From Propionibacteriaceae bacterium (lineage in GTDB: Bacteria > Actinomycetota > Actinomycetes > Propionibacteriales > Propionibacteriaceae), in the NCBI GenBank assembly GCA_009778875.1, contig WRFI01000030.1:1-14650 (forward strand): a stretch of 14,650 nt of DNA, in the 5' to 3' direction. This document shows, piece after piece, positions 14,439-14,650 of this stretch; the stretch's first letter is position 1; each line of letters begins with the position of its first letter. Both the position numbers and the translations under genes were made by a program. The notes under the pieces were generated by a model, which worked only from the letters and a program-made list of their open reading frames with translations, made no database searches and was not told where the DNA came from.

Positions 14439-14644
14439 AAATTCCCCTCAGGGGAGGGGTGGCAGTCGCCAAGCGACTGACGGGGTGGTCGGTCACCTTC
14501 CTGCACACGCTTGGAGGACCACCCCGTCGGCTCCGCCGGCACACCGAGGAGCAGTGAGCGCAGACGAGCTTGCTCGTATGCCGAACGCGACGAAGGTGTA
14601 ACAGGGAGCGAAGCGACCGAGTACCCCTCCCCAGAGGGGAATTT
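14439..14644. repeat. 22-bp inverted repeats (21/22 match) flanking a 162-bp structured non-coding segment at the window edge
   Basis: AAATTCCCCTCAGGGGAGGGGT at 14439-14460. Its reverse-complement partner ACCCCTCCCCAGAGGGGAATTT at 14623-14644 has one central mismatch. The interior contains hairpins AGTCGC-CAA-GCGACT (14464-14478) and ACGAGC-TT-GCTCGT. There is no ORF. Confidence 0.7.
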
Positions 14645-14650
14645 ACTCCG

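Follow-up and report, generated by a model that had tools for sequence, protein, structure and literature searches.

The stretch of DNA analysed here, which we refer to as the window, comes from a Propionibacteriaceae MAG and is 14,650 nt long and of chromosomal character, encoding an aminotransferase, an epimerase, a Band-7 protein, an isochorismatase and a transketolase. Towards its right-hand end lie a class II fumarase gene and an AAA_14/DUF4143 ATPase gene, the product of which matches the PADLOC candidate defence family PDC-S01 (E = 1.9e-75), and these are followed by a structured segment bounded by inverted repeats that begins 98 nt past the ATPase stop codon, as its placement after the ATPase gene by an earlier, sequence-only reading had implied. 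That reading also invoked sequence beyond the window end, but the window is already the entire 14,650-nt contig and the record therefore holds no downstream sequence. The features of the region are collected in Table 1.

Table 1. Features at the right-hand end of the window, with strand and sequence particulars
Feature	Positions	Strand	Particulars
Class II fumarase gene	start 12855	-	
Third module copy, degenerate, apparently nested	12870-12959	+	CAATTCCCCT / ATTCCCTCC-TT-GGGAGG-TGTGCC-TGCGGAG-CCGACGAGGTGGTC-GTCTCAAGCGCGTGCAGGAGGGTGAG / GAGGGGAATG; 15 nt upstream of the fumarase start codon
AAA_14/DUF4143 ATPase gene	13090-14340		
Lineage-specific 5' extension of the short module	14403-14438	+	Includes GGTGCAGCGCCGGAGCCACGG; repeated in termite-gut contig L128
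Short module	14439-14490	+	Fits the cross-phylum consensus
Short module, 5' tag	14439-14443	+	AAATT
Short module, pyrimidine block	14444-14449	+	CCCCTC
Short module, first loop	14450-14453	+	AGGG
Short module, purine block	14454-14459	+	GAGGGG; (G)GAGGGG is 14453-14459
Short module, TGGC	14460-14463	+	TGGC
Short module, hairpin 2	14464-14478	+	AGTCGC-CAA-GCGACT
Short module, 3' part	14479-14490	+	GAC, third block GGGGTGG (14482-14488), TC
Spacer between the two facing third blocks	14491-14516	.	26 nt, GGTCACCTTCCTGCACACGCTTGGAG; repeated in L128
Long module	14517-14644	-	98.4% identity over 128 nt to L128 826-699
Long module, third block	14519-14525	-	CCACCCC
Long module, CCCCTC	14624-14629	-	CCCCTC
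Long module, GAGGGG	14634-14639	-	GAGGGG
Start of right-hand extension	14645-14650	.	6 nt past the right arm, ended by the contig end

The inverted repeat and its component modules

The two arms, AAATTCCCCTCAGGGGAGGGGT (14439-14460) on the left and ACCCCTCCCCAGAGGGGAATTT (14623-14644) on the right, are each 22 nt long, lie 162 nt apart and are 95% complementary, with a single mismatch. With up to three mismatches allowed, the arm motif has only these two sites in the window, and two matches were obtained in none of 200 dinucleotide shuffles; the near-perfect 22-bp inverted repeat of the sequence-only reading is thus well founded, as is the local mini-hairpin that it noted in each arm (CCCCTC-N4-GAGGGG). 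The limits given to the segment are only partly right: the 22-bp arms stand, but the complementarity does not end there and continues, with a 2-nt indel, to CGGA (from 14436) on one side and TCCG (up to 14650) on the other. Since this pairing reaches the last base of the window, the inverted-repeat feature is cut by the window edge. In both RNA and DNA folds TACTCCG at the right end pairs with CGGA..A at 14436-14439, and further inwards GACGGGGTGGTC at 14479-14490 and its complement at 14517-14528 form a perfect 12-bp inverted repeat. The stable stem-loops that had been claimed are also predicted by folding of the 215-nt stretch, which falls far below its shuffles both as RNA (-118.6 kcal/mol; z = -7.8 for the plus strand and z = -6.9 for the minus strand) and as DNA (-62.8 kcal/mol, z = -7.1). 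The segment had further been described as free of ORFs; frames of 64-136 aa do span it, but they are spurious frames typical of such repeats.

The 22-bp arms are the first-hairpin cores of two oppositely oriented modules, and the unit as a whole is made up of two independent modules facing each other across 26 nt and is not one element. As single-stranded DNA the short module is predicted to form exactly two hairpins that leave the third block (GACGGGGTGGTC) unpaired (-14.7 kcal/mol, z = -4.6). The long module has the same order of parts on the minus strand, namely AAATT, CCCCTC-TGGG-GAGGGG, an expanded second loop and then GACGGGGTGGTC (the complement of 14517-14528), and its predicted DNA fold, taken alone, is not unusually stable (z = -1.2). 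The first loop is 4 nt in both modules; the second is 19 nt long, with a hairpin of its own, in the short module and about 95-98 nt long in the long one.

The separate recurrence of these parts is illustrated by a 2.2-kb contig from a termite gut (L128), on which a hypA-like gene is followed by three modules in the same orientation and which holds at least five copies in all. This contig is the single real copy obtained from a metagenome scan with the inner pattern GTGCCNGCGGAGCCGACGNGGTGGTC, the other 99 of the 100 matches being a chance identity in the coding sequence of a common gut bacterium. The last of its three modules is the 98.4% match of 14517-14644 entered in Table 1, joined to different neighbours, and 14517-14644 is therefore a single long module on the minus strand. 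The left-hand part of the unit recurs elsewhere on the same contig, window positions 14403-14490 being 92% identical over 88 nt to L128 579-666, and 14431-14513, which includes the spacer, 92.8% identical over 83 nt to L128 83-1. The 5' extension also stands ahead of two further modules in L128, and the L128 modules run on as AATTTTTCCGTGGCTGCGGCGCTGCACC past the point that matches the right end of the window. Sequence beyond both module ends is thus also repeated in this lineage, and the recurrence of the left flank (14403-14438) and of the spacer in L128 indicates that the lineage-specific repeat is a mosaic.

The third copy was recognized from the 88.9% identity of 14493-14545 to 12948-12895, and it looks like a module inserted in the loop of a AATTCCCCT...GAGGGGAAT palindrome. 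The window therefore holds three module copies: the short one on the plus strand, the long one on the minus strand 26 nt away, and the degenerate nested copy at 12870-12959.

Two other assemblies of the window locus (L002 and L001) are available, of which the former breaks off within the first bases of the left arm and the latter passes the inner part and diverges within the loop of the right-arm hairpin. These breaks, together with the ending of the window contig in the repeat, are as expected of a multi-copy repeat. Three contigs from relatives, with transketolases 91-92% identical and core genes of 82-86% nucleotide identity, are homologous to the window up to 12859, directly before the third copy. 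The stretch that follows differs: in the window it comprises the nested module, then a 23-nt tandem repeat, the ATPase gene and finally the dimer, whereas the relatives have a Phd/PIN toxin-antitoxin pair in its place. No module was found in 17-22 kb of these three contigs. The absence of the element from relatives and the different content of the locus place the modules at the edges of recently exchanged accessory DNA. A composite transposon made up of module, ATPase gene and dimer is unsupported, the two flanking elements being different in structure.

A dispersed module family and its link to DUF559 genes

Similarity between the window and other loci covers 14438-14489, more than the arm alone. 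The module that these loci share is about 50 nt long and consists of AATT, CCCCTC-N4-GAGGGG, TGGC, a variable, covarying hairpin and then GACGGGGTGGT; the series AATTCCCCTC-N4-GAGGGGTGGC-hairpin-GACGGGGTGGT is common to more than 100 copies in the loci retrieved. A scan with the arm pattern AATTCCCCTCNGGGGAGGGGT, taking one genome per species, gave at least 89 loci from what is a biased sample of taxa, with at least 221 modules in these 89 loci among the matches listed. Most of the loci come from termite-gut Oscillospiraceae and Clostridiales MAGs, with many copies per genome and often at contig ends, and further arm matches listed are from Rickettsiales and Cystobacterineae MAGs, Pontibacter mucosus, Balneolaceae and Persicitalea. 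The hosts among the matches listed belong to the Propionibacteriaceae, Firmicutes, Bacteroidota, Balneolota, Myxococcota and Rickettsiales MAGs, the module being multi-copy in termite-gut Firmicutes MAGs and present in five other lineages.

The third block, GGGGTGG, was absent from the search pattern. Of the 88 pattern matches, 84 nonetheless have it in the 130 nt downstream, as compared with 11 upstream; alternative placements of its T were found in at most five of the pattern matches. The block is a mirror image of the invariant purine block, in that GGAGGGG reversed is GGGGAGG and GGGGTGG is the same with T for A. When 31 distinct modules were aligned, 97.6% of the cells in the outer pairs of hairpin 2 were paired, and over the whole structure both sides of a pair had changed in 40 cells, the observed score being attained in none of 500 shuffles and controls in which the structure was slid along scoring far lower. 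The changing base pairs were all confined to hairpin 2, the first hairpin being invariant and so uninformative on covariation. Hairpin 2 is under structural selection, and GNA and GNNA loops are common in it.

Arms were found singly, in tandem, in both inverted arrangements and in both orientations to genes; the common gene-less dimer of other genomes has the arrangement opposite to that of the window, with the AATT ends facing. Within tandem gene pairs the modules are oriented with the genes in 44 cases and against them in 31, which amounts to no strand bias, and eight modules lie between divergent genes as against 25 between convergent genes. A blastn search with the unit gave no match among phages and plasmids. 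Rfam yielded no family match, either for the window at the gathering score or for the end region and five related loci at E values up to 10, the only sub-threshold look-alikes being the serC leader, miRNA precursors and CC3664. When ORFs near the modules were clustered, mostly spurious frames resulted, and the only recurrent families were DUF559 and leucine-rich surface proteins.

The lead to DUF559 (PF04480, with a Vsr-like PD-(D/E)XK fold) came from direct inspection of two loci, L019 and L013, in both of which a gene of this family lies between modules. Six further loci (L192, L202 and L210-L213) were taken from the DNA of homologues of the L019 protein, for three of which the C-terminal tail described below had not been flagged. 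In all eight loci the plus-strand module ends 3-40 nt before the start of the gene and the minus-strand module overlaps or just follows its 3' end. They derive from Balneolaceae, Oscillospiraceae, Pseudanabaena, Desulfonatronum, Ottowia, Thiothrix and two metagenome contigs, and so from at least six lineages, and whole dimers are often repeated on both sides of DUF559 genes. The tail, of PPxEGN type, is present in 58 of the best 120 homologues of the L019 protein, and 79 of the same 120 have either this tail or an xTPx signature; both are translations of the reversed module. The module pair is thus constantly linked to DUF559 genes in the loci examined. The DUF559 gene ycjD of E. coli fits as well, since the repeat TMECO no. 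9 lies 168 nt downstream of it on the same strand (Table 1 of PMC4666352), and a degenerate motif covers the ycjD stop codon, the end of the gene being duplicated as well. Strain O157:H7 is without both ycjD and TMECO no. 9; the whole neighbourhood differs there, with a breakpoint about 40 nt from the motif.

Neither the window nor L128 yielded a DUF559 gene, and neither did about 80 termite-gut loci other than L013 and L019, these loci having been collected with a pattern that would miss the 7-bp hairpin form flanking DUF559 genes. The window pair itself, with a plus-strand module, 26 nt and a minus-strand module whose third blocks face each other, has the layout of a DUF559 cassette without the gene, and its spacer occupies the position at which related cassettes carry the DUF559 gene. 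We know of no DUF559 activity on such DNA. In an independent survey, DUF559 proteins are placed with the gene families that show the strongest enrichment in predicted programmed inversions (odds ratio 14; PMC9881135), which fits genes that are flanked by inverted repeats, and another study places a group I intron homing endonuclease within the Vsr/DUF559 clade (PMC3424549). Two papers on repeats associate no gene or mobility function with such sequences (PMC4666352, PMC3733652), Holder et al. having found neither mobility genes nor a flanking-gene pattern at TMECO (PMC4666352), and nothing on such repeats was apparent in that part of the DUF559 literature covered by an incomplete search. The link to DUF559 may be the part of these results that is new.

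Candidate explanations

The unit of about 206 bp with its near-perfect inverted ends invites comparison with a classical MITE, that is, a deletion derivative of an insertion sequence in which the 22-bp arms are terminal inverted repeats for a transposase encoded elsewhere. Size, inverted ends, non-coding character and presence/absence polymorphism are all shared with MITEs, and assemblies break at the unit, close relatives are without it and it lies in a variable island. What survives of the MITE proposal is repeated, selfish-looking DNA with inverted ends; what does not is the 206-bp unit as the thing repeated, and the transposase. The arms belong to self-contained modules, which also occur alone, as a like-oriented series of three (L128) and as dimers inverted the other way round, and the repeat extends outside both arms. 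The right-hand 128 nt recur at 98.4% identity with other partners and the left-hand 83-88 nt recur separately, from which it follows that the 206-bp unit is not copied as a whole, as a MITE would be. The arm sequence is common to several phyla, unlike the ends of insertion sequences, and no transposase family was found among the clusters of 489 ORFs within 300 nt of modules. As to a parent element with the same ends, no transposase was found in that role; elsewhere the ends bracket DUF559 genes, none of which was seen in the window lineage. We regard a classical MITE as decidedly unlikely, but the same inverted layout around DUF559 genes makes a gene-less derivative of a gene-carrying cassette a live reading.

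The other possibility raised at the outset, a retron msr-msd ncRNA in which the arms would be a1 and a2 and a reverse transcriptase gene would lie just past the contig end, shares with the element no more than a structured segment that is enclosed by inverted repeats and lies at a contig edge, and we consider it extremely improbable. The Rfam searches gave no match even at E values up to 10, no reverse-transcriptase-like neighbour recurs among the more than 200 modules in at least 89 loci, and no start of a reverse transcriptase gene is apparent in the 109 nt beyond the element in L001. The modules lie in both orientations to genes and in mixed arrangements, the same arms flank DUF559 genes, and relatives are without the element, all of which is the behaviour of a dispersed DNA repeat. 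A role for the element as RNA in the service of the host, of REP type and acting as a bidirectional terminator or an mRNA-stabilizing hairpin after the ATPase gene, is unlikely too, albeit with rather more in its favour: the left arm read on the minus strand is a terminator-like hairpin followed by AATTTTCC, the unit starts 98 nt after the ATPase stop codon, and fewer modules lie between divergent than between convergent genes. Promoter or terminator activity was, however, not found for PIT, BoxC or TMECO elements (PMC4666352), the modules in tandem gene pairs have no orientation bias, and the third copy lies in a divergent promoter region, 15 nt from the fumarase start. The T-run on the plus strand is also too short to score as a terminator, and relatives manage without the element.

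It is probable, in our assessment, that the window carries an inverted heterodimer of modules of the BoxC/PIT/TMECO type, which spread selfishly with DUF559, and that the window pair is a gene-less or empty cassette of this kind. In single-stranded DNA the first hairpin of a module would form and the third block would fold back into its major groove, so that third block and first hairpin might make up an antiparallel purine-motif triplex with hairpin 2 as the turn, by analogy with the motifs compared below. Two inverted modules could alternatively pair as one long hairpin or cruciform. The modules would act as DNA and not as RNA, to judge by the lack of strand bias, the GNA and GNNA loops and the statement that purine-motif triplexes do not form in RNA (PMC4666352). 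Their selfish spread would take place together with, and probably through, the Vsr-like DUF559 nuclease encoded between facing modules, the likely route being structure-directed nicking followed by recombinational copying, and the window pair would represent a gene-less derivative or an empty cassette at the edge of a variable island with a candidate defence ATPase.

We put forward more tentatively, and at somewhat less than even chances, the wider proposal that triplex-motif repeats are the non-autonomous partners of a selfish DUF559 cassette, the window pair being a gene-less actinobacterial cassette. DUF559 may mobilize the modules: the nuclease would recognize the folded module, in the form of a cruciform or of a hairpin with a third strand, and nick at the module, whereupon repair by recombination would place copies of modules, and now and then of the gene, at new sites. 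Such nuclease-driven copying, if it is true, would also account for the genomic instability at such loci. On its own the feature in the window is a small structured repeat at a contig end, which accounts for the stop in the assembly and marks the edge of a variable island with a candidate defence ATPase. The wider importance lies partly in the genes of the DUF559 subfamily that are bracketed by modules in every locus examined, a pattern with which ycjD and TMECO no. 9 of E. coli are in keeping; should the link prove functional, an unexplained class of bacterial repeats would gain a testable candidate enzyme, and a large domain of unknown function would gain a biochemical role.

Comparison with known repeats

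REP, BIME and REPIN elements carry a GTAG tag and are associated with RAYT, a Y1 (IS200-like) transposase, in what has been called a 'REPtron'. The present modules resemble them as short, structured intergenic repeats that form inverted dimers and mosaics and are enriched past the 3' ends of genes, and in having a dedicated small gene flanked by inverted repeat copies. They differ in that the consensus is without the GTAG tag, no Y1 transposase was found near modules and the flanked gene encodes a DUF559 nuclease, and in the build of the module, which comprises two hairpins plus a mirror block. There is also a likeness to the CGTC-tagged REPs, which 'apparently lack a dedicated transposase' (Di Nocera et al. 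2013, PMC3733652) and whose four families have stems of 8-9 bp starting with two A/T pairs, loops of 4-5 nt and a CCA tail (PMC3733652). On the minus strand hairpin 2 reads CGTC-AGTCGC-TTG-GCGACT-GCCA, with CGTC tag, stem and CCA tail, and in both groups dimers predominate, the small stem-loops at the spacer ends being like those of the A. tumefaciens CGTC-3 dimers (PMC3733652). The stem here, however, is 6-7 bp long and starts with A-T and then G-C, the loop is 3 nt, and many modules elsewhere are without the CGTC tag (for example GCCGC-GTTA-GCGGC). Identity with the CGTC-tagged REPs was accordingly rejected on stem and loop.

BoxC and PIT elements reportedly go back to Bachellier in the 1990s and to Hoyne and Maher in 2000, and we know of no function or spreading mechanism that has been established since the 1990s for BoxC, PIT or triplex-motif repeats. 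The BoxC element of E. coli was re-described as a potential intrastrand triplex (PIT) and later as TMECO (Holder 2015, PMC4666352), with the consensus CCCTCNCCC-N3-6-GGGNGAGGG-N3-GGGNGAGGG. In vitro, CD and NMR show the isolated strand to adopt a purine-motif triplex, a G-quadruplex being excluded by NMR, although a stable triplex was not supported by in vivo DMS footprinting (PMC4666352). Strain K-12 has 23 copies, all intergenic and without strand bias, and these include five inverted pairs of type A with type B; TMECO no. 1 (plus strand) and no. 2 (minus strand) lie 16 nt apart with their third blocks facing (PMC4666352). Salmonella is reported to be without TMECO (PMC4666352). TMECO loci are unusually rearranged between strains (PMC4666352), and the position of the present modules at exchanged DNA agrees with that instability.

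From the order and symmetry of their blocks, the modules of the window can be assigned to the BoxC/PIT/TMECO kind of intrastrand triplex motif in the broad sense. Both the short and the long module have pyrimidine, purine and mirror-purine blocks on one strand, compatible with G*G.C and T/A*A.T triplets, and follow the mirror rule of TMECO (GGGGAGAGGG / GGGTGAGGGG) with T or A opposite A. Their first loop of 4 nt falls within the published range of 3-6 nt (PMC4666352). Like BoxC, PIT and TMECO repeats, they are multi-copy and intergenic, have no strand bias, form frequent inverted heterodimers with a short spacer and occupy rearranged or variable loci. They depart from the strict TMECO consensus in sequence and in having blocks of 7 nt (CCCCTCC / GGAGGGG / GGGGTGG) where TMECO has 9 nt (CCCTCNCCC), in the conserved AATT tag at their 5' end, and in hosts from lineages outside the Proteobacteria listed for TMECO. 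A further difference is the second loop. The PIT search admitted up to 10 nt there, ITxF motifs have up to 6 nt and TMECO has 3 nt (PMC4666352), whereas in the present family a covarying hairpin of 10-40 nt fills this loop, which reaches about 95 nt in the long module. The second loops of the window, at 19 and about 98 nt, are far outside these limits and weigh against the fit to a triplex motif. The third block is, moreover, complementary to that of its partner in the inverted pair (14479-14490 and 14517-14528), so that no triplex is needed to explain the block in the dimer. On the other side, a copy from Pontibacter has a plain TTA second loop, as in TMECO type A, which ties the present family to TMECO. 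Since a hairpin takes the second loop beyond 6 or 10 nt, variants of this form are invisible to the published searches; triplex-motif repeats extend well past the Proteobacteria and Cyanobacteria in a form that published criteria exclude, and what is new relative to the catalogued repeats is this form, with a hairpin in the second loop, together with host lineages beyond those two groups.

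The first-hairpin loop and the right arm

The loop of the module's first hairpin (CCCCTC-N4-GAGGGG) may itself be a target for insertion, as suggested by the nested copy at 12870-12959 together with a divergence between two assemblies of this locus. The second assembly, from another sample (L001), departs from the window within the hairpin loop of the right arm, after ACCCCTCCCC, and continues into unrelated sequence that begins TGTGAGACTGGTAGTGG; its positions 11543-11651 stand where the window has 14633 onward. This departure may instead be an assembly chimera.

Genomic setting in the window

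The features located in this part of the analysis are collected in the table. Truncation of the tRNA gene at the left contig end keeps ARAGORN from calling it in the window; the same program calls tRNA-Leu(TAG) at 3048-3130 of locus L215. The stretch present in the window is 100% identical in three relatives (contigs that share core genes with the window), with flanks that are only about 82% identical there. The three ORFs of the accessory block, of 687, 257 and 323 aa, gave no matches in searches of Pfam, NCBIfam and PADLOC. The tandem repeat, which may serve as an operator or resemble an iteron, precedes the start codon of the ATPase gene by approximately 30 nt; in the relatives, the slot held by the ATPase is occupied by a Phd/PIN toxin-antitoxin pair.

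Coordinates of features in the window and in two other loci
Feature	Locus	Position	Strand	Remarks
tRNA-Leu(TAG) gene, partial	Window	1-64	-	Left end of contig falls inside gene
Accessory block	Window	7100-11460		Relatives are without the block
Tandem repeat, 23-nt unit AAAATGGGAGCGTAGAATGCCCG	Window	13002-13062		2.7 copies, 97% identity
AAA_14/DUF4143 ATPase	Window	13090-14340		Matches PDC-S01, a candidate defence family in PADLOC (E = 1.9e-75)
Second repeat adjoining module	L012 (Pontibacter mucosus)	about 150-330		Obeys mirror rule; blocks differ
ycjD and the motifs after it	L214	1530-2340		E. coli K-12 1,351,029-1,351,839

Related repeats and their hairpins

Among the matches listed for the genome-scan loci (L003-L091), GNA triloops and GNNA tetraloops with a closing C-G pair (GTA, GGA, GCA, GAA, GTTA and GTAA) are very frequent in the variable second hairpin, and the GCGAAGC mini-hairpin is among them. 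Loops of these kinds with C-G closure, and GCGAAGC, are hallmarks of stable hairpins of DNA, not of RNA. The second repeat of L012, which also follows the mirror rule, reads CCCCCTT-TGA-AGGGGG-TA-GGGGGA on the other strand and suggests a wider superfamily of such motifs. Of the 100 metagenome matches, 99 (L092-L191 except L128) reflect chance identity: the 26-nt inner pattern coincides with a stretch, reading ...ADGVVLGVLTPDGEVDE..., of a coding sequence from a bacterium that is very common in the human gut.

DUF559 cassettes and the E. coli ycjD locus

Four of the eight cassettes in which a DUF559 gene accompanies the modules (L192, L202, L212 and L213) lie within type I restriction-modification operons, between hsdR, hsdM and hsdS genes. 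Neither ycjD, a DUF559 gene of E. coli, nor the triplex motif TMECO no. 9 is next to fabI in O157:H7, and the same holds for some 2,000 further complete genomes; the breakpoint lies approximately 40 nt from TMECO no. 9. In K-12, ycjD is followed first by a second copy of roughly its final 45 nt, then by a degenerate motif and after that by TMECO no. 9.
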